Positions 6,358 to 21,756 of a stretch of 21,832 bases of DNA are shown in pieces. The notes under the pieces were generated by a model, which worked only from the letters and a program-made list of their open reading frames with translations, ran no database searches and was not told the DNA's origin. Source of the stretch: a virus (taxonomy: Duplodnaviria; Heunggongvirae; Uroviricota; Caudoviricetes); the IMG/VR virus record IMGVR_UViG_2778261247_000008. The stretch is one strand, 5' to 3'. A program made the translations under genes and the position numbers. Numbering within the stretch: position 1 is the stretch's first letter; every line of letters starts with the position of its first letter.

Positions 6358-6669
6358 ATGTTTAACGTGATAACCCACCCTGCAGCACTGGATGAACTGC
6401 TTGAACTACCAGATGATTTGCGAGGTCGCATGACCAGATTAATTGAGCGACTGGAGAAGGAAGGCAACAAACTGAAGATGCCCCATAGCCGTGTAATAGG
6501 TGGAGGGCTTTTTGAACTACGAGTAGGGGATAAAAACATCGCAAGAACGCTGTACGCCTACGCGACTGGTAACGAAATTTATCTATTGCATGCATTTGTA
6601 AAAAAGACACAGAAAACACCGGTGAAGGCTATCGAAATCGCCAGAACTCGCCTGAAGGAGATGAACTGA
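6358..6669 (+). CDS. higB: type II toxin, RelE/HigB superfamily (Gp49-like)
   Basis: 103 aa; GGAGG RBS; toxin-first order with a 1-nt overlap (TGATG) to a downstream XRE-HTH gene. Sequence MFNVITHPAALDELLELPDDLRGRMTRLIERLEKEGNKL... fits the Gp49/HigB-like family as recalled. Confidence 0.7.
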   Translation: MFNVITHPAALDELLELPDDLRGRMTRLIERLEKEGNKLKMPHSRVIGGGLFELRVGDKNIARTLYAYATGNEIYLLHAFVKKTQKTPVKAIEIARTRLKEMN

Positions 6670-6956
6670 TGAAAGCGAAAGGCATCCCGTTTAACGAAGT
6701 AAAAGAAAAACTTCTCAACACTCCAGAAGCCATCAAAGGATATGAAGAGGCCGATAAAGAGCTGGAGATGGTCGAAATGTTATACGAAATGAGGGAAAGA
6801 GCAGGTTTAACGAAATCAGCTCTGGCTGAACGAATGGGGTTGCGACCGTCAGCCATCAGCCGCCTGGAAAGCAATCCTTTAGGGGCAAGTATGAAAACTT
6901 TGGCTAAATATGCTCATGCCTGCGGCGCAACCATCGATATTCGCGCTGTTTATTAA
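6669..6956 (+). CDS. higA: type II antitoxin, XRE-family HTH (HigA-like)
   Basis: 95 aa with HTH (GLTKSALAERMGLRPSAISRLE); translationally coupled to the upstream toxin. Confidence 0.7.
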   Translation: MKAKGIPFNEVKEKLLNTPEAIKGYEEADKELEMVEMLYEMRERAGLTKSALAERMGLRPSAISRLESNPLGASMKTLAKYAHACGATIDIRAVY

Positions 6957-6998
6957 TTAGACTCTTTTACTACCCCGTCCAGAAGGGCGGGGTGTGCA

Positions 6999-7202
6999 TC
7001 AATGATGTGAACGCTCAACAGCGATAGTTTTCTGACAATGCTGGGCAATCTCTCGCGACATGTTGATGAGTCGTGAAACCTCACCAATATGTAGGCTGGC
7101 TTCTGGAGAAGCCAGGGTGACGCTAACCAGATCCAGAACGGCGTCAATATCTCTCAAATTTGAATCGAGTTGTTCAAGAGTTGATACGGCTGCTTCAGAC
7201 AT
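6999..7202 (-). CDS. small hypothetical protein (67 aa) preceded by a LexA box; candidate SOS-induced effector such as an antirepressor
   Basis: ORF MSEAAVSTLEQLDSNLRDIDAVLDLVSVTLASPEASLHIGEVSRLINMSREIAQ.... Consensus LexA box about 40 bp upstream; GC hairpin 6973..6992 just downstream. Confidence 0.4.
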   Translation of the reverse strand: MSEAAVSTLEQLDSNLRDIDAVLDLVSVTLASPEASLHIGEVSRLINMSREIAQHCQKTIAVERSHH

Positions 7203-7238
7203 TAAATCTCATACCATTTAACTAAAAAAGGTTTTTTA

Positions 7239-7258
7239 TACTGTATAAAATTACAGGA
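7239..7258. promoter_or_regulatory. LexA (SOS) box
   Basis: TACTGTATAAAATTACAGGA has the exact CTGT-N8-ACAG core with an AT-rich spacer; lies in the intergenic gap between two minus-strand genes. Confidence 0.6.
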
Positions 7259-7284
7259 TAAAACTCAAACTTTACGGTCAATTT

Positions 7285-7527
7285 TCAATGAATTAACTGC
7301 GTAAACTGCTGTGTGACCCGATACTTATGCTCTCTCCCTATGCCACGATCAACTTTCTCAAGAAGTCCAGTACGGACAGCAGAATCAAGCATCCTTTTAA
7401 CAATTCTGCTATTTAACCCAACATCAAAAGCAAGCATCGAAGCGAAAACAAACCCATCACCACCATCAGAAAAGCTCTTTTCGCTCCGTTTTCGTATCAT
7501 TTCAAAAAGCAATGCCTTTTTATCCAT
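7285..7527 (-). CDS. hypothetical protein (80 aa)
   Basis: ORF MDKKALLFEMIRKRSEKSFSDGGDGFVFASMLAFDVGLNSRIVKRMLDSAVRTGLLEKV... Confidence 0.35.
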   Translation of the reverse strand: MDKKALLFEMIRKRSEKSFSDGGDGFVFASMLAFDVGLNSRIVKRMLDSAVRTGLLEKVDRGIGREHKYRVTQQFTQLIH

Positions 7528-7545
7528 TTATCCCTCCGTGACCAG

Positions 7546-7872
7546 TCACACTTTGAGCGCAAGTTTCAGCCTCGTGGTTGTAAGGTGGCATGACCCTTCG
7601 CCATCAAAAATGCATTCTGAAACAGGCATTTTTTGACCACATCGCGGGCAAGTAGTAGATAGCTGCTTCTGCAGCTCCTTATAGTTTTTCCTGATCAGCA
7701 AACCAATGACTTCGTTCTCCGAATATGGAACTCGCCCTGGTCTACGCAATACACAAATTTCCCCCAACATACGTAACTCGTCAGGTTCTAGAATCCAGTC
7801 CCGTCTTGATGTGCCTTCCTTCTTCAACCGTTCCCTGCGTCTCCTTTGCCGTTCTGCCGGTGTCAGCGCCAT
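7546..7872 (-). CDS. hypothetical protein with arginine-rich N-terminus and C-terminal zinc-ribbon-like cysteines (108 aa)
   Basis: MALTPAERQRRRRERLKKEG... and ...CPRCGQKMPVSECIFDGEGSCH. Confidence 0.4.
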   Translation of the reverse strand: MALTPAERQRRRRERLKKEGTSRRDWILEPDELRMLGEICVLRRPGRVPYSENEVIGLLIRKNYKELQKQLSTTCPRCGQKMPVSECIFDGEGSCHLTTTRLKLALKV

Positions 7873-7887
7873 AAATCCTCCTGAAAA

Positions 7888-8547
7888 TTACTTAACCCAA
7901 CTAACTACACCGCCAGCGGCCACAACCGCCCTTTCACAATCACGCTCATATCTCAAAGGTTGAAATACACCATCAATAAAATATTTATCTCCACCAAACG
8001 CTGCAGGAAGTGAAACAGAAAACTGAACATGACCATCCGGAGTTACCGGAGAGTTGCCAGCCTCATACGCGACCCTTATCCAGTGCATAAACATTTCAGT
8101 ACTTACACATCCACAATCAACATCAATTTTGTCATGCTGCTGTTCCAGCCATTGCTCAAAAGTTAACTTGTAAGTTTGGCTTACAGGTTTGGCTTCCAGT
8201 TCTGCTACGCGCTGTTTTGCAGCATCCAGTTCAATCGACAATTTTTCCAACTGCTCTTTATGCTTCTTGTATTCCTGATATGCGTGCCAGGACTGACCTT
8301 TGCGCACACTATCAGTAATATCAGTAATCTGTTCTGGTGTTAGCGTGGTCAGTGGCTGTGCTGGGAAAATCAGCACTTTCCCGGAATCCCAATCAAAACC
8401 AGCGTGAATTGACTGAACCTCAACTGAGGGTGTTGAACCAATGCTGCCAGGCGAATGAATAACGATTGTTACATCCATATCGCGACGATGGCTGTGGTTG
8501 TTGGACAAAATACGATTCACCAACTCAGAAAATTTGGAAAATTTCAT
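7888..8547 (-). CDS. hypothetical protein (219 aa)
   Basis: Long ORF codirectional with flanking genes; 4-nt overlap with the downstream ORF start. Confidence 0.5.
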   Translation of the reverse strand: MKFSKFSELVNRILSNNHSHRRDMDVTIVIHSPGSIGSTPSVEVQSIHAGFDWDSGKVLIFPAQPLTTLTPEQITDITDSVRKGQSWHAYQEYKKHKEQLEKLSIELDAAKQRVAELEAKPVSQTYKLTFEQWLEQQHDKIDVDCGCVSTEMFMHWIRVAYEAGNSPVTPDGHVQFSVSLPAAFGGDKYFIDGVFQPLRYERDCERAVVAAGGVVSWVK

Positions 8548-11325: not shown

Positions 11326-11922
11326 ATGAAAACACGAGGCGAACGACTGAAAGCACGCCGTTTAGAGATGAAGCTGACGTTGCGAGAAGTTGCTGAGGCT
11401 GTCGATATCTCTATTGCAGGCGTCCAAAACTTAGAACGTGGCGACGTAATGCCGTCACTGGAGATAGGTATTGCCCTGGCTAAATGCTTACGCAAGCCAG
11501 TGCATTGGGTGCTGTATGGGACAGAATATGACCCTGATCGCATTCCTGTTATTGGCACAACTGAAAGTGGACCTGATGAAGAGTGGAAGCCAGGACAGGT
11601 TCCAAATACTGAGCGATTCCTGCCATTCATCAGCCAGCGCAATACTGTTTATGCGTTAACTATCAGCAATCTGGCGCAGGGAAACTATCAGCCAGGCGAT
11701 TTTCTCCTGGTCGATTCTGCGCTGGAACTGGTTCCCGGCGAGGATGTTCTGGTTCGTGATACTGCAGGAAATATCACCATCCAGCGCCTGGCCCGTTTTG
11801 ATGATGAAAATTACTATCTGGACGGAACAAATTCACAACGCGCCATCTTCAGGAAAAGCGATCTTGAATTTGTTCACCAAATAGTCGGAACGATCAAATC
11901 ATTCATGGTTGAGGGTAGATGA
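11326..11922 (+). CDS. cB: prophage repressor (CI/CB-like: N-terminal XRE HTH plus C-terminal LexA/CI-like dimerization domain)
   Basis: 198 aa; HTH LTLREVAEAVDISIAGVQNLERG; C-terminal segment aligns with the lambda CI C-terminal domain as recalled (PGDFLLVD...ITIQRLARF versus CI ...FTFKKLIRD). Confidence 0.75.
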   Translation: MKTRGERLKARRLEMKLTLREVAEAVDISIAGVQNLERGDVMPSLEIGIALAKCLRKPVHWVLYGTEYDPDRIPVIGTTESGPDEEWKPGQVPNTERFLPFISQRNTVYALTISNLAQGNYQPGDFLLVDSALELVPGEDVLVRDTAGNITIQRLARFDDENYYLDGTNSQRAIFRKSDLEFVHQIVGTIKSFMVEGR

Positions 11923-12167: not shown

Positions 12168-15100
12168 ATGACATTAAACGATTTCTATGCGGATCGCTTT
12201 GGCAGCGATCCGTTCTCGCTAATTGAAGCAGCACGGGATGAACTAACCGAGCTGGCACAGATGGCTGGTATCAACTGGTCTGCCTGTTCCGACAACATCC
12301 AACTCAACCCTCGCGGGGGTGTTGAGCGTTACTCTTCATACAATAAAACATCTCCAGAAGCTCTCGAAAAGAGCCTCAAAGGACGCGTAGAAATTTACTC
12401 CCGGCTGGAACACAGCAAAGGGATTGATTACCCGTTCATTAACTTCGTCCATAAAGGCAGCGATGCTGGCTCATGGAGCGGTTTCTCCTTCCTGTTTTCT
12501 GAATATCGCCGTGAGCAACAACGGAATAATGCGACCGTGGTCGCACAACCGGAAGAAGAACGGGCAAGAATAGAACGTCAGGCCGAAGCACGTCGTCGCC
12601 GTGAAGAACAAAAACGAATTAATGACCTGAAAAACAACCAAATGGACCATGAACGTTTGCTGGGATGGCTGGCATTCCACAGCGCGTGGGAACATGCTCC
12701 TGCAGAAGACGGCTCATGGCCATATGCGATTAAAAAAGGTATTCGTGACGTTTTTAATTCGTGTGATGTGCGTCGCGTGACCAGTCACGACAGCGCAAAA
12801 TGGAGCAGGGGGCCAACCACGTATATGGCTATCCCTCTGGCTCACCTGGACGGTCGTTACGATGGTCGTATTGTGGGTTGGCAGCGAATCGACAAACAAG
12901 GTGGAAAATACCAGACCAGCGCCGTAACCAGCGGCGATTTCGTCGGTGCCTGCTTTGTTATCGGTGAGCTAAAAGGGGCGCAAAACATCGCTGTTACAGA
13001 AGGTTTTGCTACTGGTGCATCCATCTGGCTTGCCACGAAAAAAGATAAACGCTTTGACGCTGTGGTTGTCGCTGTATCCGCTAATAACATGGTTCATGTT
13101 GTGGAACAACTGGTAAACATGTACCCGGCGGCAAAAATCACCTGCGCACTGGATAATGACCGGAAATCAGCCACAGAAGGAAAAGGGAATACCGGCCTGC
13201 GGACTGGCTATGAAATCTTATCGAAATTCAACGATGTCCGCTGCGTCTATCCAACTTTTGAAGACGATCCGCAAATGGAGTGCAGTGACTTCAACGACCT
13301 GCACAAACTGCGTGGACTTCGTGAAACAGCACGTCAACTGTTTGCAACTGCAAACCGCCTGAAAACCGGCACTGATTTGCTATCTCTGACGCTCAACCGC
13401 CTGAAGACAATTAAGCGGGATAACCGTCGTACTTTTGCCAAAGAGCTGCTGAGAGCGGTGGATATTGGCATGCTAACCTGTCCGGTTCCTAACAGTCCGT
13501 CAGACTTATTTAACATGTTCTGCATCGTTCTGCGTGAAATGGGGCTGGAAAATATCTATCGCGCTACGGTAAAAGACCACATTGCCCGTCGCCTGAATAA
13601 AAAGTGCCGTATTGCCCAGGCTCCGCGCTCATTCAGCGAACGCATAACTGATCCCAATAAACGTCCTCAACATATCACCTATAAGCGTTTTGAAACTTCG
13701 GTAATGACCGATGACGTCCTGAAGTATGTGCAATCACTACAGGGGATAGTCATCGTTCGTGCTGGTATGGGTTCCGGCAAATCTACTGGATTGTTACGAC
13801 CTTTAATGCATAGCTCAGAACGTGGTATCTCTGTTGCTCACCGTGTTTCCCTTATTGGTGGCCTGTGGGAAATGATGACAGAAGGAAAAGGTGTAAAAGC
13901 CGATATCCTGCACTATCAGGACCCTGGCTATCAGGAAATGGCTCCATACGCCAGTAAACTGACCATCTGCATAAACTCGATTGTTAAAAACTGCTGGCAA
14001 CCGTTGATGCGCCAGCACGACTATTTTGGCTTTGACGAGGCCACGCAAGGGCTACGTGCCGTTCTTTCCGGTCGGGCTATGGAAAACCCGGTGGCTGTAT
14101 TCAATACGTTAATCGACGCGCTGGCCAGAACGGAACAACACCCAATAATGGTGGATGCTGATGCGAACGATCTGCTGGTTGACCTGGCTGAACTGGCTAT
14201 GAAACGCCGTGAAGAACTAGGTTTACCGGCATGGCTGCAGATCCACGTAATTGAATTACCTGTTGATGTTCGCAACCGCGAAACAGGTGAGCCAATCCGG
14301 GTTTTTTATACAGAAAAAGATCGCATTATGACCGAGGTGGTGAAAGCTGTATCGGATGGCGAAAAAATCATGTTGGCCACCGACAGCTCCACCTTTGCAG
14401 AAGATGTGACAGCCACCCTGAGAATGCATTTTCCTGGTAAGAAATTTCTGTGTGTAAACCAGAAAAACAAACCAGAGCCAGAAGTTGAAGCATTTACCAA
14501 TCAACCGAAAAAGATGGTCAAAAAATACGACGGCCTGATTTATAGCCCGTCTATTTCATCCGGTGTGTCGATTGAGCAAAAACATTTTGACCGTCATTTC
14601 GGCATGTTCTGTGGTGAAGTTGTACCCAGCGACGCAGTGCAAATGCTACGCCGCGACCGTACAGCAAAAGAATTTATTATCGGCTTTGATAAAGCTCGCG
14701 CAAAACGTGAAACTGACCCGCAAAAAATAGAACGAGCATTCGCCCAGGCATTGCTTGCTACCGCAGGCATGAACGGTGAACTGACGGATGTCGTTTTCGA
14801 TGGCGACCGTATATCAATGGGGGTGGCCAATACCGACTTTACCAGGATGAAAATTAAAGCAGCCGCAATTGAAGCGTCTGCGCGTAACGACTACGCCAGC
14901 AACATGATCTGCATCATGCACAGCGACGGTTATAAGGTATCGCCGCTGGCCACCGATTATGCTGCGAATGATATCGGTAAAGATCTGCGTAAAGAAGCGC
15001 GGGATATTGTGTGGGAACAGACACTGGATCTGCATCTCAATACAGAAACTCCACAAGAATCAGAGCGTGAAGAACTGCTAAAAAAACGCGCGCTGACGCT

Positions 15101-16163
15101 TGAAGAACAAGCAAAACTTGTCCGCTGGGATATTGAGAACGAACTGAAACTACCGGTTGAAGAAGGCACGCTGAAATTCTATTTCGATGGTGCTCGAGAC
15201 AAAGTTCGCCGCTATGAAACAATGCTTTTAGATGAGGTAACAGCTCGTCGTTACGACCGGGAAGAAGCAGCCATCAATTTTACCTACGCATACCGTCAGG
15301 CGGGACAGTGGCAATATTTTGTAGTGACCGCGATGACTCGCGAGCAGGCTGATGATGTCTTTAAAACTAAATTCCCTGGAATAATCGACTACAAGGTAAA
15401 AGCTACTCCTACTGTTGAAGTCGGGGCGCGCGGTTTCTATGCGCTTAAATCAGCAACTCTCCGGCAGTACTTTATCGACTGCGGTATCAACCCTGAGACT
15501 ATGACCGGCGAGGCGACTCAGGAGCGTCTCAAATTCGCTCGAGATAACCTCATGACAGCCGAACGCCGTGACCTGTTGAATAACGTTCTGCACATTGGTG
15601 GTTTTATGACGCCAAAAGGGAAGCCTAAAGTGCCGGAAGCGTTGTTTAAAAACATTTGCGACTCTCTTGGCCTTAAAACAGGTAAACGTCGCGGCAGAGA
15701 CGGCGATAAGCGTCCAACCTTGCGTTTTGTTGAGCCTGAATCAGCGGCATTTATGCTGGATATTCTTGTTCAGCGTCAGAAAGATGGCCTAACCCTAAAA
15801 ACGCGTAAAGCCGAGAAGACAGCCATCGAAATGGATCGCGATTTGGATCTCAATATATATATGGATGATAAAACGCGATCCACAAACGAGCAGGTTCAAA
15901 ACGCCCCTCATTCAGTAATTTCTGAGGCTTTGGCCGTATTGCCGGTGGCTGTTCCTGAGTCCTGGGCGATGAGTGCGCTTTCCGGTGAGGAGCTGGCCAC
16001 TATGTCATCATGGTCATCAGCCAGCATAGCTATGACGTTTGCATCTCTGTATCTCACAGAGTTCATGGATCACTTGTCCAGCAATGAATTGCGGCGGTTA
16101 CGAGAATACATTACCGGGAATAGCTCATGCAGCTACGAAGAGCAGGGCGCTTTCTATGGGTAA
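12168..16163 (+). CDS. repA: replication protein RepA, multidomain primase-helicase (N15 RepA-like)
   Basis: Single 1331-aa ORF with Walker A VRAGMGSGKSTGLL in the central region; size and position next to cB match N15 RepA (about 1324 aa, as recalled). Confidence 0.85.
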   Translation: MTLNDFYADRFGSDPFSLIEAARDELTELAQMAGINWSACSDNIQLNPRGGVERYSSYNKTSPEALEKSLKGRVEIYSRLEHSKGIDYPFINFVHKGSDAGSWSGFSFLFSEYRREQQRNNATVVAQPEEERARIERQAEARRRREEQKRINDLKNNQMDHERLLGWLAFHSAWEHAPAEDGSWPYAIKKGIRDVFNSCDVRRVTSHDSAKWSRGPTTYMAIPLAHLDGRYDGRIVGWQRIDKQGGKYQTSAVTSGDFVGACFVIGELKGAQNIAVTEGFATGASIWLATKKDKRFDAVVVAVSANNMVHVVEQLVNMYPAAKITCALDNDRKSATEGKGNTGLRTGYEILSKFNDVRCVYPTFEDDPQMECSDFNDLHKLRGLRETARQLFATANRLKTGTDLLSLTLNRLKTIKRDNRRTFAKELLRAVDIGMLTCPVPNSPSDLFNMFCIVLREMGLENIYRATVKDHIARRLNKKCRIAQAPRSFSERITDPNKRPQHITYKRFETSVMTDDVLKYVQSLQGIVIVRAGMGSGKSTGLLRPLMHSSERGISVAHRVSLIGGLWEMMTEGKGVKADILHYQDPGYQEMAPYASKLTICINSIVKNCWQPLMRQHDYFGFDEATQGLRAVLSGRAMENPVAVFNTLIDALARTEQHPIMVDADANDLLVDLAELAMKRREELGLPAWLQIHVIELPVDVRNRETGEPIRVFYTEKDRIMTEVVKAVSDGEKIMLATDSSTFAEDVTATLRMHFPGKKFLCVNQKNKPEPEVEAFTNQPKKMVKKYDGLIYSPSISSGVSIEQKHFDRHFGMFCGEVVPSDAVQMLRRDRTAKEFIIGFDKARAKRETDPQKIERAFAQALLATAGMNGELTDVVFDGDRISMGVANTDFTRMKIKAAAIEASARNDYASNMICIMHSDGYKVSPLATDYAANDIGKDLRKEARDIVWEQTLDLHLNTETPQESEREELLKKRALTLEEQAKLVRWDIENELKLPVEEGTLKFYFDGARDKVRRYETMLLDEVTARRYDREEAAINFTYAYRQAGQWQYFVVTAMTREQADDVFKTKFPGIIDYKVKATPTVEVGARGFYALKSATLRQYFIDCGINPETMTGEATQERLKFARDNLMTAERRDLLNNVLHIGGFMTPKGKPKVPEALFKNICDSLGLKTGKRRGRDGDKRPTLRFVEPESAAFMLDILVQRQKDGLTLKTRKAEKTAIEMDRDLDLNIYMDDKTRSTNEQVQNAPHSVISEALAVLPVAVPESWAMSALSGEELATMSSWSSASIAMTFASLYLTEFMDHLSSNELRRLREYITGNSSCSYEEQGAFYG
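12530..12545. other. sopC-like palindrome inside repA, opposite orientation (spacer GT)
   Basis: TGCGACC-GT-GGTCGCA, 7-bp arms; on the coding strand all five sites read GCGACCGUGGUCGC in the mRNA sense. Confidence 0.45.
15833..15881. other. candidate replication origin element inside the 3' part of repA
   Basis: GGATCGCG ... CGCGATCC inverted repeat flanking an AT-rich core (ATTTGGATCTCAATATATATATGGATGATAAAA) with GATC sites; N15 ori is reported inside the 3' region of repA (recalled). Confidence 0.3.
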
Positions 16164-18079: not shown

Positions 18080-18109
18080 TTGACGTGTGCGTCGTTTTGA
18101 CGGTAAAGT
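18080..18109 (+). promoter_or_regulatory. candidate promoter of the ant-operon leader
   Basis: TTGACG, 18-nt spacer, TAAAGT. Confidence 0.3.
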
Positions 18110-18116
18110 TACTCCG

Positions 18117-18190
18117 CTGCGGCAAATTCCGCAGCCGGGCGTGAGAACCCGGATAAACGAAGCGCACAACACGCGCCAGCGTGTTTTTTT
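18117..18190 (+). ncRNA. candidate c4-like small regulatory RNA / attenuator transcript in the ant-operon leader
   Basis: Two stem-loops (CTGCGG-CAAATT-CCGCAG; CCGGG-CGTGAGAA-CCCGG) followed by an intrinsic terminator (AACACGC-GCCA-GCGTGTT plus T-run). Loop GUGAGAA is complementary to UUCUCAC at 18275..18281 in the downstream leader. Confidence 0.35.
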
Positions 18191-18356
18191 GTGTGTATAT
18201 ACCTGCGCATATCCGATTTATGGTGGCTCAGGCGGGGCTGACTTCGGTCAGGCCGGTTTCTTCGTTTGCCGGTATTCTCACCCCCGCTTGGGCTACCACC
18301 ATTCAAGAGCGTGAGAACTCTGGTGGTAGCACGACCAATTAAACGGAGTGCATACC

Positions 18357-18521: not shown

Positions 18522-18748
18522 ATCAGGTAAAAATGAACACTGTTGGCCTGCTGGAATCGTTGGATGAACGTCTGGATCAGGTCTATGCGCTCGTATCATC
18601 AGCCCATCGGACAGTCTCCAGCTGTGAGGCGTCGATTTATCTCTCAGAAGCAGGGAAACTCCTTCAAATTGCGTGTGAGTTAACACACGAAGCACAGGGG
18701 TATTCAGCATCGCTCTCGTCGCAATTGCTAGGCAAGGAGGCTGAATGA
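18518..18748 (+). CDS. hypothetical protein (76 aa), translationally coupled between the small ORF and ant
   Basis: ATGA overlaps at both ends. Confidence 0.45.
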   Translation: MNQVKMNTVGLLESLDERLDQVYALVSSAHRTVSSCEASIYLSEAGKLLQIACELTHEAQGYSASLSSQLLGKEAE

Positions 18749-19530
18749 GCGCGTTAGCAGTTTTTTCCTTTCAGGATGAGCATCAGATACGTGTAGTGAT
18801 GATTAACGGCGAACCGTGGTTTATTGCTGCTGATATTTGCCGTGCTTTAGGTATAGGGAATCCGACAAAAGCTATAAAAAACTTAGATCATGATGAAGTA
18901 GCCCTTACTTCAATTCAGGGCTTAAGTCGAGGTAATGATAAAGCGAATATTGTCAATGAATCAGGTCTATACACCCTGATCCTCCGCTGCCGTGACGCTG
19001 TAAAACAGGGCACGACCGCGTGGCGTTTTCGTAAATGGGTAACGAACGAGGTCTTGCCCTCTATTCGCAAGAATGGAGAGTACGTTTACGTCGAGCCTGA
19101 GCCAATGCGAGCAGCGGAGCCGTTGAACTGGAGGCAGAAGGAGTATCTGCGAGGGCTGATTAACGATATTGCACAAAGTTTTCAATACCGAAATGCCTGG
19201 ATTAGTGGTGTATGGTTGGCTTTGCGTCGGGCGTGTCGTAATCCATCCCCGAACCCCATAACGGTTGATGATTTGCCAGCAATTACGGCAGAACTGCGCC
19301 GGATTTTGACGGCTGCTGAGTCGGCATTGGGGAACATGCGTACGTATGAACGAGAGTTGTTGCGTGATGTCGTTCGTGGGGGTAGGCGGAGTATGTCGTG
19401 TGGTGATTTGCCCATCACCGATATTAACTCTGATCTGGAAAAGGCGTTACCCGCGCATTTTGAACTGGCAGTTCAAAAACTTGAGCAGTTATCCGCGCAG
19501 TTAAAGCCAGCAGAAATCACTAATAAATAG
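18745..19530 (+). CDS. ant: antirepressor with N-terminal BRO-N/Ant domain
   Basis: N-terminal pattern FSFQDEHQIRVVMINGEPWFIAADICRALGIGNPTKAIKNLDHDE is typical of the Bro-N antirepressor domain. Confidence 0.7.
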   Translation: MSALAVFSFQDEHQIRVVMINGEPWFIAADICRALGIGNPTKAIKNLDHDEVALTSIQGLSRGNDKANIVNESGLYTLILRCRDAVKQGTTAWRFRKWVTNEVLPSIRKNGEYVYVEPEPMRAAEPLNWRQKEYLRGLINDIAQSFQYRNAWISGVWLALRRACRNPSPNPITVDDLPAITAELRRILTAAESALGNMRTYERELLRDVVRGGRRSMSCGDLPITDINSDLEKALPAHFELAVQKLEQLSAQLKPAEITNK

Positions 19531-19701: not shown

Positions 19702-21603
19702 TTAACCGAAATATGTCAGCCATGCTAACTGCATTGCTGACATGGGGCTGTTTGCACTGCCGGACCACGCATAATTCTGGCCATTATAATGAAACTCAAC
19801 AACGTATGAGCCATCACCAATATTTCTCACCGGCTTAAATACCGGCTTAGATACAGGCGAAGAAGGTGCAGGCGGTTGCTGTTCTTCTACGCTCTCTTCC
19901 TCTTCCTCTTCCTCTTCCTCTATCTCAATTTCGTCGTCATCCAGATCGTCATCCTCTGATAATTCATCCGCCAGTTCAGGTATTGCTTCCTGTTCTTCTT
20001 CGTCAGGCATAACGATTTCTGGAGTATCTATTTTCAGTTGCCATTGTCCGTTTTCGCCAACAAATTGCCCCAGAGCATCAGCAGCAAATTCCAGGTATCG
20101 ACTAATCATTGTTGGGCTAAATTTGAACGCTCTTAGAGTGCTGTTCGTGATTTTTATAGAGGGGTCCTGCTCTACCAGCTGCTTAACTGTGTTATGCAGA
20201 CGAACCCCGGCATCTCCTCTGGCGAATCCAGGCATTTCGTCATCAAGCTGCTGCAATGCTTCCAGCCTGGTATTTTCGTTTCCAGTATTTGGCCTCCATG
20301 TCTTTGAGAAGTTGGCCAGCTTGAATTGCTTATAGTGTAATTGAGTGTTTTCATCGTCATGGCCTAAAATTTCCATAAAGAAAACATCTTCATCTACATT
20401 TTTCCAACGGGGATCTACGCGGAAAAACATTTCATACGCAATGCGGGCATAAATAGCACGACTATCTTTATAAACACGGCGGTCATCTTTGAAAAATGAT
20501 TTAACCCAGGGGTTAAAAGCCTTTGCTAATATGGCATTAATACGTCCGTTTTCAGACCGTGTATCGTTATCTCCATAACCTTTAACGACATCATCAAAAT
20601 CAGATGCTGCTGGGCATGAGCGAAGTACATTTATTAAATAAACAAATGTTTTTGCCTCACATAATGTATATATTTTTCTGGTTATATCATCAGCAGTTCT
20701 TTTTTTAGCTTGACCTAAAAAATCAACGGTATACTTACCAGAAACAGTAAATGTACCTTGATACATAATCTCAATCATTCGTCTTCCTGACAATGCAGCA
20801 AGTGCAAATGCCAAAGGAGCCATACCTGAACGAGTGTTTAGATTATTTAATGTAGCAGGGCTATTTATAATATCGTAAATAGCTTGCATATATTTAGGGT
20901 AGTCAATGACCACTACGTTACGTTTCTTATTGTGTAGAACGTCCGCCCATCGTTGCTGGATAGATGCGCGTTCTGCAGGGCTTAGTTGGAGATGATAGAG
21001 AATCTCATGGTTAACCTTTAGCTGATTCAACTCCTCAAGCAAGGCAGACCCCTGCTGTAGTAATTTATATAAATAATCGCGCTTATCTTTCCAGTTATCA
21101 CTAATTAAATCAGAAATGGCAAATTGCCACTCTTTATATTTATTTGATAATTTTATTAACTTATTATTACTTTTATTATCACCAATTCTGATATTAGATA
21201 AATCTTCGGACAGAGGAATAATTAATTTTAACTTTGCCTGTAAAGCTGACATTCTCCGGCGAATATCGGCAGCAGGTAGAGAAAGCCATGACAATAGCTC
21301 CTCATTATATAAAGGATACTTTTCAGATAGGCGATATATATTTTTTTCAAAACTATGATGAAGTTTATCATCAAACCGTTTTCTGGCCCTGCTCATATAG
21401 GCATTGAATGTGTTGGCTGTAATTCTTTTTTCTAATCCTTTCCCCCGAAACTTTCGCTTGTCATTAAATAATGCATTTTTAAATTTTAATGCAACGGCCT
21501 TTATTTTTTTTGTTTTCTCCCCTTGAGGACGATCAGAGTTATCTATTGACTCAACATCGCTAACAAGTGAGTTTATTAATTCACCGATTTTTACTTTGCT
21601 CAT
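19702..21603 (-). CDS. telN: protelomerase (telomere resolvase) TelN
   Basis: 633 aa; N-terminus MSKVKIGELINSLV...NALFNDKRKFRGKGLEKRITANTFNAYMSRARKRFDDKLHHSF and C-terminus ...GDGSYVVEFHYNGQNYAWSG match N15 TelN (about 631 aa) as recalled. AGGAG RBS; telRL-like palindrome about 150 bp upstream. Confidence 0.9.
   Translation of the reverse strand: MSKVKIGELINSLVSDVESIDNSDRPQGEKTKKIKAVALKFKNALFNDKRKFRGKGLEKRITANTFNAYMSRARKRFDDKLHHSFEKNIYRLSEKYPLYNEELLSWLSLPAADIRRRMSALQAKLKLIIPLSEDLSNIRIGDNKSNNKLIKLSNKYKEWQFAISDLISDNWKDKRDYLYKLLQQGSALLEELNQLKVNHEILYHLQLSPAERASIQQRWADVLHNKKRNVVVIDYPKYMQAIYDIINSPATLNNLNTRSGMAPLAFALAALSGRRMIEIMYQGTFTVSGKYTVDFLGQAKKRTADDITRKIYTLCEAKTFVYLINVLRSCPAASDFDDVVKGYGDNDTRSENGRINAILAKAFNPWVKSFFKDDRRVYKDSRAIYARIAYEMFFRVDPRWKNVDEDVFFMEILGHDDENTQLHYKQFKLANFSKTWRPNTGNENTRLEALQQLDDEMPGFARGDAGVRLHNTVKQLVEQDPSIKITNSTLRAFKFSPTMISRYLEFAADALGQFVGENGQWQLKIDTPEIVMPDEEEQEAIPELADELSEDDDLDDDEIEIEEEEEEEEESVEEQQPPAPSSPVSKPVFKPVRNIGDGSYVVEFHYNGQNYAWSGSANSPMSAMQLAWLTYFG
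19893..19920. repeat. hexanucleotide tandem repeat (TCTTCC)x4 inside telN, encoding a poly-Glu run
   Basis: Four perfect TCTTCC units on the plus strand = (GGAAGA)n on the coding strand = EEEEEEEEE in the acidic linker. Confidence 0.85.
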
Positions 21604-21756
21604 CTTTCTTCTCCTGATTATCCGCTCGGATTATCGTAACACAATTTGAGAATAAGATAACCAATAACGAGTTAACTTACCCACAAAACAACAGAACACA
21701 ATACCAGATTGTAAAAAATAACACAATACAGGAACGTGGAAATTTGTTCCTTGACT

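Follow-up and report, generated by a model that had tools for sequence, protein, structure and literature searches.

A predicted LexA-controlled antC module in an N15-like linear plasmid-prophage

LexA-controlled antirepressors and the N15 system

In phage N15, the antC switch was reportedly worked out experimentally by Mardanov and Ravin in 2007, with antC as a LexA-repressed antirepressor of the prophage repressor CB. Secondary accounts likewise describe a LexA-controlled AntC that acts on a non-proteolytic CB (PMC4488713, PMC3121763, PMC11652158, PMC10432266), with LexA repressing the antC promoter and derepression following upon DNA damage (PMC11652158, PMC3121763), AntC binding and inactivating CB (PMC4488713), and AntC listed among the LexA-controlled antirepressors (PMC3121763). 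According to the same accounts, induction of N15 needs both the control of the antC promoter by LexA and the action of AntC against CB.

Several other systems resemble this arrangement in part. For Tum of phage 186 and the Gifsy antirepressors GfoA, GfhA and GftA, a LexA operator is likewise found on a small gene outside the immunity region, the product of which binds and inactivates a non-cleavable repressor (PMC3121763). Tum, however, comprises 146 aa with a DinI-like half, whereas AntC is a predicted helical hairpin of 67 aa, and no sequence similarity of AntC to DinI or Tum was detected with Pfam or NCBIfam; as judged from these comparisons, the likeness of AntC to Tum and the Gifsy antirepressors is one of analogy, not membership. 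Small telomere-type phage proteins that inactivate cI without proteolysis are also encoded by the smORFs of Vibrio linear plasmid-phages (Silpe et al. 2023, PMC10432266), but these are switched on by a phage transcription factor of their own, independently of SOS, and are located in the repA-telN interval (PMC10432266). Finally, the immI operon of P1 and the immA operon of N15 (C4/CA antisense RNA, icd, Ant/AntA) also set an antirepressor against the prophage repressor, and an operon of this type is found in the DNA analysed here; it differs from antC in its control by antisense RNA, its large BRO-N protein and its separate locus. Secondary accounts place this operon under RNA control and not under LexA (Ravin et al. 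1999, cited in PMC4488713).

The present analysis concerns a 67-aa gene in a viral DNA of 21,832 nucleotides, the whole of which is referred to below as the window. An earlier note on this DNA had proposed that a small LexA-repressed effector acts against a non-cleavable CB, and had presented the gene as the best SOS-linked candidate in the window. The proposal is supported, the gene being the syntenic homolog of a LexA-box ORF in N15. The note overlooked that the switch was known: the gene is an unannotated copy of a known N15 system, and since the AntC switch of N15 had already been described, its recovery constitutes a rediscovery from raw sequence and not new biology. We are confident in assigning the locus to an N15-like telomere phage as its antC module, in which LexA-repressed AntC inactivates a non-cleavable CB; the biochemical steps of this reading are drawn from the N15 literature, while the window supports the operator, the coding capacity, the synteny and the loss of the catalytic dyad. 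In a lysogen, host LexA bound at 7239..7258 would cover the -10 element and keep the 67-aa gene silent. Upon DNA damage, active RecA would lead to LexA self-cleavage and transcription of antC, and the two-helix AntC would bind CB, which is predicted to be unable to cleave itself because Asn and Gln replace its catalytic Ser and Lys. Binding of AntC would strip CB from its operators, derepressing cro, Q and repA and leading to lytic growth.

Gene order and probable correspondence to N15 antC

Over bases 6600..7900 the window has 100% identity with Escherichia phage YDC107_1 (Ravinvirus) and 99.7% with PhiR46_1, and comparison of the annotated record with our ORF map revealed the gene order of N15 in reverse orientation. 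By its sequence the window is a Ravinvirus, i.e. an N15-like linear plasmid-prophage. Among 5,426 complete E. coli genomes, 12 carry the locus, invariably on a plasmid and mostly on one of ~46 kb, which fits a linear plasmid-prophage. The features of the window are as follows.

Ahead of the toxin-antitoxin pair in window order: terminase, lysis genes, methylase, then gp51 and gp50
6358..6956, plus strand: toxin-antitoxin pair, Gp49/HigB-RelE-like toxin (PF05973, 2.5e-29) and HTH_3 antitoxin
6973..6992: GC-rich hairpin where antC and the antitoxin gene converge, 6 nt past the antC stop codon
6999..7202, minus strand: antC ortholog of 67 aa with ATG start, stop codon within the coordinates; sequence MSEAAVSTLEQLDSNLRDIDAVLDLVSVTLASPEASLHIGEVSRLINMSREIAQHCQKTIAVERSHH
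7239..7258: predicted LexA operator (SOS box) TACTGTATAAAATTACAGGA, gene-strand reading TCCTGTAATTTTATACAGTA
7240..7245, minus strand: inferred -10 hexamer TACAGT, inside the LexA box, invariant in all relatives
7263..7268, minus strand: inferred -35 hexamer TTGAGT
7285..7527, same strand as antC: gp47 homolog, then gp46
After gp46: further genes on the same strand, including pmgU and the exonuclease, then Q and cro
11326..11922, plus strand: cB, prophage repressor and presumed AntC target, with an N-terminal HTH_3 and a degenerate S24-like C-terminal domain
12168..16163: repA, in N15-type gene order
18103..18155, plus strand: c4-a1b1 target element (Rfam), directly upstream of the BRO-N ant gene
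18116..18189, plus strand: isrK element (Rfam)
18216..18303, plus strand: C4 antisense RNA (Rfam, 82 bits)
18745..19530: BRO-N ant gene, 261 aa, of the anti-immunity operon, ~11 kb from antC
19702..21603: telN, in N15-type gene order

When 50,697 phage records were searched by tblastn with the 67-aa product, matches were returned in N15-like phages only, comprising N15, phiKO2, six Klebsiella telomere phages, one Enterobacter Ravinvirus and two near-identical E. coli phages. The N15 match (39619..39807) covers 63 of the 67 residues at 55.6% identity (E = 9e-16), with the reciprocal search in agreement, and belongs to an ORF (39619..39831) that sits between genes 47 and 48, where N15 has no annotation. 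Upstream of this ORF, at a distance of 37 nt, lies the box CCCTGTGTTTATATACAGTA (39562..39581; 22.4 bits), one of just two strong LexA boxes in the 46,375-bp genome, where the third-ranked site reaches 10.1 bits by an approximate matrix of E. coli operators. The strongest N15 box (TACTGTATAAAAAAACAGTT; 21658..21677, 25.1 bits) is located 15 nt upstream of the UmuD-like gene 26. Given that the sole other LexA-box gene of N15 is this umuD homolog, the ORF at 39619..39831 is very probably the published antC. The secondary literature on N15 AntC yielded no coordinates for antC, which we take to map between genes 47 and 48.

The order gp46, gp47, antC, followed by a convergent HTH antitoxin and RelE-like toxin, is common to the window, N15, phiKO2 and KpLi5; the toxin-antitoxin pair of the window, which corresponds to N15 genes 49 and 48, immediately adjoins antC. 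The two Ravinvirus loci thus share a position between gp47 and the gp48/gp49 pair, together with a nearly equal distance from box to start codon (36 nt in the window, 37 nt in N15), an invariant SPEASL turn, assignment to phrog_6301, and a partner CB with a dead S24 dyad. They differ, at the identity given above, in the C-terminal tail of the protein (AVERSHH in the window, ADELIRQAGE in N15), in the left half of the box (TCCTGTAA and CCCTGTGT, respectively) and in the downstream hairpin, which in the window lacks the canonical A-run/T-run terminator form of N15.

Annotation of the family was found to lag behind these correspondences. Both the GenBank and RefSeq records of N15 (NC_001901, 39515..39895) leave antC unannotated, the YDC107_1 record applies the name ‘putative gp47’ to the 67-aa ORF as well as to the true gp47 homolog, and the database copies found in E. 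coli, Klebsiella and Enterobacter, including one with the exact N15 sequence, are labelled ‘hypothetical protein’. No database entry naming any member of the AntC family was found, the word-indexed search reaching only near-identical, unnamed E. coli proteins. A rule for annotation may be drawn from the features described here, namely an ORF of 66-76 aa with a SPEASL motif and a LexA box 36-40 nt upstream, carried by a telomere phage in which Gln replaces the catalytic Lys of CB. With it, the induction trigger could be annotated automatically in these phage-plasmids, which are common in clinical Klebsiella.

The AntC product and its presumed target

Coding capacity of the ORF at 6999..7202, as originally claimed, is borne out by its ATG start and by dN/dS values against relatives of 0.10-0.38 (wherever synonymous sites are unsaturated), which indicate that purifying selection acts on a genuine protein-coding gene. 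The start can lie no further upstream than the ATG at 7202, which an in-frame TGA precedes by 9 nt. The predicted protein matched phrog_6301, a family of unknown function, at 1.8e-35, and more weakly and remotely phrog_10889, annotated as ‘anti-repressor’, at 6e-8, a pattern also seen for the proteins of N15 and phiKO2. Neither Pfam nor NCBIfam yielded a family at E <= 0.01, the Pfam search revealed neither a BRO-N nor an ANT domain, and a sequence-profile search of the PDB gave nothing below E = 0.18. Structure prediction, which the earlier note had suggested, gave a confident two-helix hairpin with AlphaFold2 (pLDDT 89.7), its helices spanning residues 2-29 and 33-66 and its turn coinciding with the invariant SPEASL motif. 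Foldseek searches of PDB and BFVD recovered generic helical hairpins only (E >= 0.38), so that the predicted structure adds nothing about function. EsxA/WXG100, Rop and designed bundles, which were among these matches, were rejected as uninformative structural relatives at such E-values. One copy of the protein, encoded on an ENA contig of 783 bp (P0008), carries an unrelated stretch in place of residues 30-50 between identical ends; this stretch most likely represents a compensated double frameshift caused by sequencing error.

With respect to the presumed target, the earlier claim that CB lacks the catalytic lysine of the autocleavage dyad proved correct and extends to the serine. CB carries an HTH_3 domain (Pfam, 3.4e-11), and its match to Peptidase_S24 is partial and sub-threshold (21.3 bits against a cut-off of 23.3, covering profile positions 29-97 of 116). 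Where LexA reads TVKRL and lambda CI reads TFKKL, CB reads TIQRL, placing Gln153 at the position of the catalytic Lys (Lys156 of LexA, Lys192 of lambda CI); similarly, QRNT in CB aligns with GMSM and GNSM of LexA and lambda CI, such that Asn106 replaces the catalytic Ser. CB therefore shows neither the Ser-Lys dyad nor the full Peptidase_S24 domain of a self-cleaving S24-type repressor. Consistent with these features, a cleavage site and Ser/Lys dyad were not detected in CB of N15 and phiKO2 (PMC4997575), and the N15 repressor is uncleaved upon SOS induction (PMC10432266, Fig. 1b). Between the window and N15, CB is conserved at 78% identity and AntC at only 55.6%; the window AntC would presumably bind its own CB.

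We also compiled a comparative set of 54 loci from GTDB genomes and IMG/VR, comprising 19 distinct proteins at 49-100% identity, and retrieved full-length CB homologs from 10-kb flanks. Among the 49 AntC-linked CBs so obtained, the Lys position was Gln in every case (49/49), while the Ser position was occupied by Asn (31), Glu (12) or Ser (6). In these sequences AntC thus co-occurs strictly with repressors predicted to be unable to cleave themselves, which is what an antirepressor model predicts. NAR688, which carries a homolog, is inducible with mitomycin C (PMC12042878).

Since phage 186 Tum has been described with a DinI-like half (PMC3121763), and the 67-aa protein combines a generic helical hairpin fold with the lack of any functional domain in Pfam or NCBIfam, we considered whether the gene may be SOS-induced for a purpose other than antirepression, whether by modulating RecA/LexA in the manner of DinI, by inhibiting division, or by modulating the HigB/RelE-type pair that it directly adjoins in convergent orientation. 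Such a role is, in our view, very unlikely. The protein resembles neither DinI nor any other family, and its remote similarity is to a PHROG annotated as anti-repressor; its ortholog is the sole LexA-box gene of N15 besides umuD, and the LexA-controlled gene of N15 acts, according to the secondary accounts, on CB. The strict association with dyad-dead CBs, which need an effector for SOS induction, likewise argues for an antirepressor.

Proposed promoter, operator and downstream hairpin

Comparison of the 30 distinct upstream sequences among the related loci revealed a small number of invariant columns within drifting flanks, comprising TTTG, a CTGT half-site (reading ATGT in phiKO2 only), TT.TATACAGTA, which contains the right half-site TATACAGTA, and GGTA near the start codon. 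The TTTG columns are taken to mark the proposed -35 hexamer, and 17 nt separate TTGAGT from the proposed -10 hexamer, TACAGT. This pair agrees with the sigma-70 consensus at 8 of 12 positions, and a consensus promoter and terminator scan of 6900..7400, with a threshold of 9/12, called nothing; the promoter proposed here is derived from comparative conservation and lies below the threshold of the scanning tool. These features are suggestive of a weak sigma-70 promoter with its -10 element within the LexA operator, and because the hexamer overlaps the operator, bound LexA would be expected to occlude RNA polymerase. At the level of sequence, overlap of operator and promoter is accompanied by a strong site (21.2 bits), a 36-nt distance to the gene, and presence of the box in 54/54 loci.

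The gene had been described as isolated, which goes too far, as it is the last member of a long same-strand array running from Q through gp46 and gp47 to antC, with no hairpin or terminator between gp47 (ending at 7285) and antC. The lack of such an element, together with the weakness of the proposed promoter (8/12, and uncalled by the scan), leaves room for a reading in which the LexA box serves as a roadblock or attenuator that gates read-through from the early operon (Q ... gp46, gp47), such that antC would belong among the early lytic genes and would not trigger induction. This we consider less probable still. Because the early operon is kept off by CB in a lysogen, read-through could not account for SOS induction, and in N15, as reported in secondary accounts, LexA represses the antC promoter. 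Furthermore, TTTG, the 17-nt spacer and TACAGT have remained invariant in 30 diverged upstream sequences while their neighbours drift, a pattern that fits a promoter overlapped by its operator.

As to the operator, the claim of an exact CTGT-N8-ACAG core at 7239..7258 was confirmed: the core CTGTATAAAATTACAG (7241..7256) is the sole occurrence of this pattern in the 21.8-kb window. The bare pattern constitutes weak evidence, with 0.22 occurrences expected by chance and at least one found in 18 of 100 shuffles, and all 20 positions were therefore scored by a matrix. This approximate matrix consists of symmetrised weights from 20 E. coli LexA operators, reportedly those compiled by Lewis in 1994 and by Fernandez de Henestrosa in 2000. 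By this measure the box scores 21.2 bits, within the range of the E. coli operators from which the matrix was made (12.5-25.6 bits), while the second-ranked 20-mer in the window reaches 11.0 bits and none of 300 shuffled windows attained 21.2 bits (top shuffle, 20.4). Description of the site as a ‘consensus’ box is slightly generous, as 16 of its 20 positions agree with the consensus TACTGTATATATATACAGTA, although it is a strong site; the note placed it ‘about 40 bp’ upstream of the ORF, and the actual gap to the ATG is 36 nt. Across the comparative set, a LexA box of 18.5-25.0 bits was found 36-40 nt upstream of the start codon in each of the 54 loci. By its sequence, the box is a real operator, statistically significant and conserved in position.

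That the box is a chance match or decayed site before an unexpressed ORF, as the 18/100 shuffles with a bare core might suggest, is effectively refuted by the failure of all 300 shuffles at the full 20-position score, the fixed distance in 54/54 loci and dN/dS values of 0.10-0.38. Even when added together, the three alternatives to a LexA-controlled antirepressor of CB (another SOS function, a read-through gate, and chance) are improbable.

Consistent with the observation that no LexA box precedes the BRO-N ant gene, the matrix scan of the window detected no LexA-like site above 11 bits near this gene. Its lack of a box is accounted for by its membership in an RNA-controlled operon of the P1 immI/N15 immA type, with a C4 RNA upstream. 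Given the absence of a LexA site and the presence of the C4 RNA and its a1/b1 targets directly upstream, BRO-N ant was rejected as an SOS target.

The GC hairpin reported to follow the ORF exists at 6973..6992. Folded on the antC (minus) strand it contains a C/A mismatch and has a predicted energy of -14.6 kcal/mol (z = -1.8), which is matched by 11 of 200 shuffles, and it is more stable on the plus strand, that of the toxin-antitoxin pair (-19.4 kcal/mol). A U-tract follows it on neither strand and the terminator scan makes no call, leading us to reject a canonical intrinsic terminator for the window lineage. In nearly all relatives, a strong hairpin is found directly 3' of the stop codon, usually preceded by an A-run and followed by a T-run, a layout that corresponds to a bidirectional terminator and of which the version in the window lineage is a weaker form without the U-tract. 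Judged by its sequence and position, the hairpin is probably a transcription stop, albeit a non-canonical one.

Distribution and divergence of AntC

An exhaustive HMMER survey of 1.84 billion cluster representatives identified only five members, which indicates that the AntC family is confined to the N15-like phage group. Wherever a locus reaches far enough, it includes a CB homolog, with cB located 4-6 kb upstream of antC. The two proteins have diverged to differing degrees: in the loci L069-L078, AntC is 76-78% identical to that of the window, beside CB at 99-100% and gp46 at 97-100% identity, marking antC as a local hot spot of divergence or recombination in genomes that are nearly identical elsewhere, and across the family AntC falls to 45-60% identity while CB is still at 75-80%. 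One might speculate, by analogy, that antC is a fast-evolving specificity determinant, with variants that tune cross-induction or insulation between co-resident N15-like plasmid-prophages, in a manner that we liken to the crosstalk of Gifsy antirepressors; we regard this as unlikely, though not negligibly so. AntC may also possess a further target besides CB. The much faster divergence of AntC than of CB could bear on cross-induction between co-resident telomere phages.

A second strong LexA box, CACTGTAAAAATAAACAGTG (17.6-20.4 bits), was identified where the DNA methyltransferase gene (gp52) begins in Klebsiella-type relatives, comprising L003 (4268..4287; phiKO2, about 45657..45676), L008, L039, L041, L042 and L044; neither N15 nor the window lineage carries it. 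To our knowledge, no SOS-controlled methylase has been described in N15-like phages.

Two copies of the antC locus were observed on each of five IMG/VR contigs (3300045988_113976, 2791355284_000001, 2609459977_000002, 2703718687_000004 and 2667527966_000002), as well as on the 75-kb E. coli plasmid NZ_CP019258.1. On the five IMG/VR contigs the copies lie in opposite orientation, and some of the two-copy contigs approach twice the length of the phage genome. Such contigs probably represent head-to-head assemblies or replication intermediates that were read across the hairpin telomeres of the linear plasmid.
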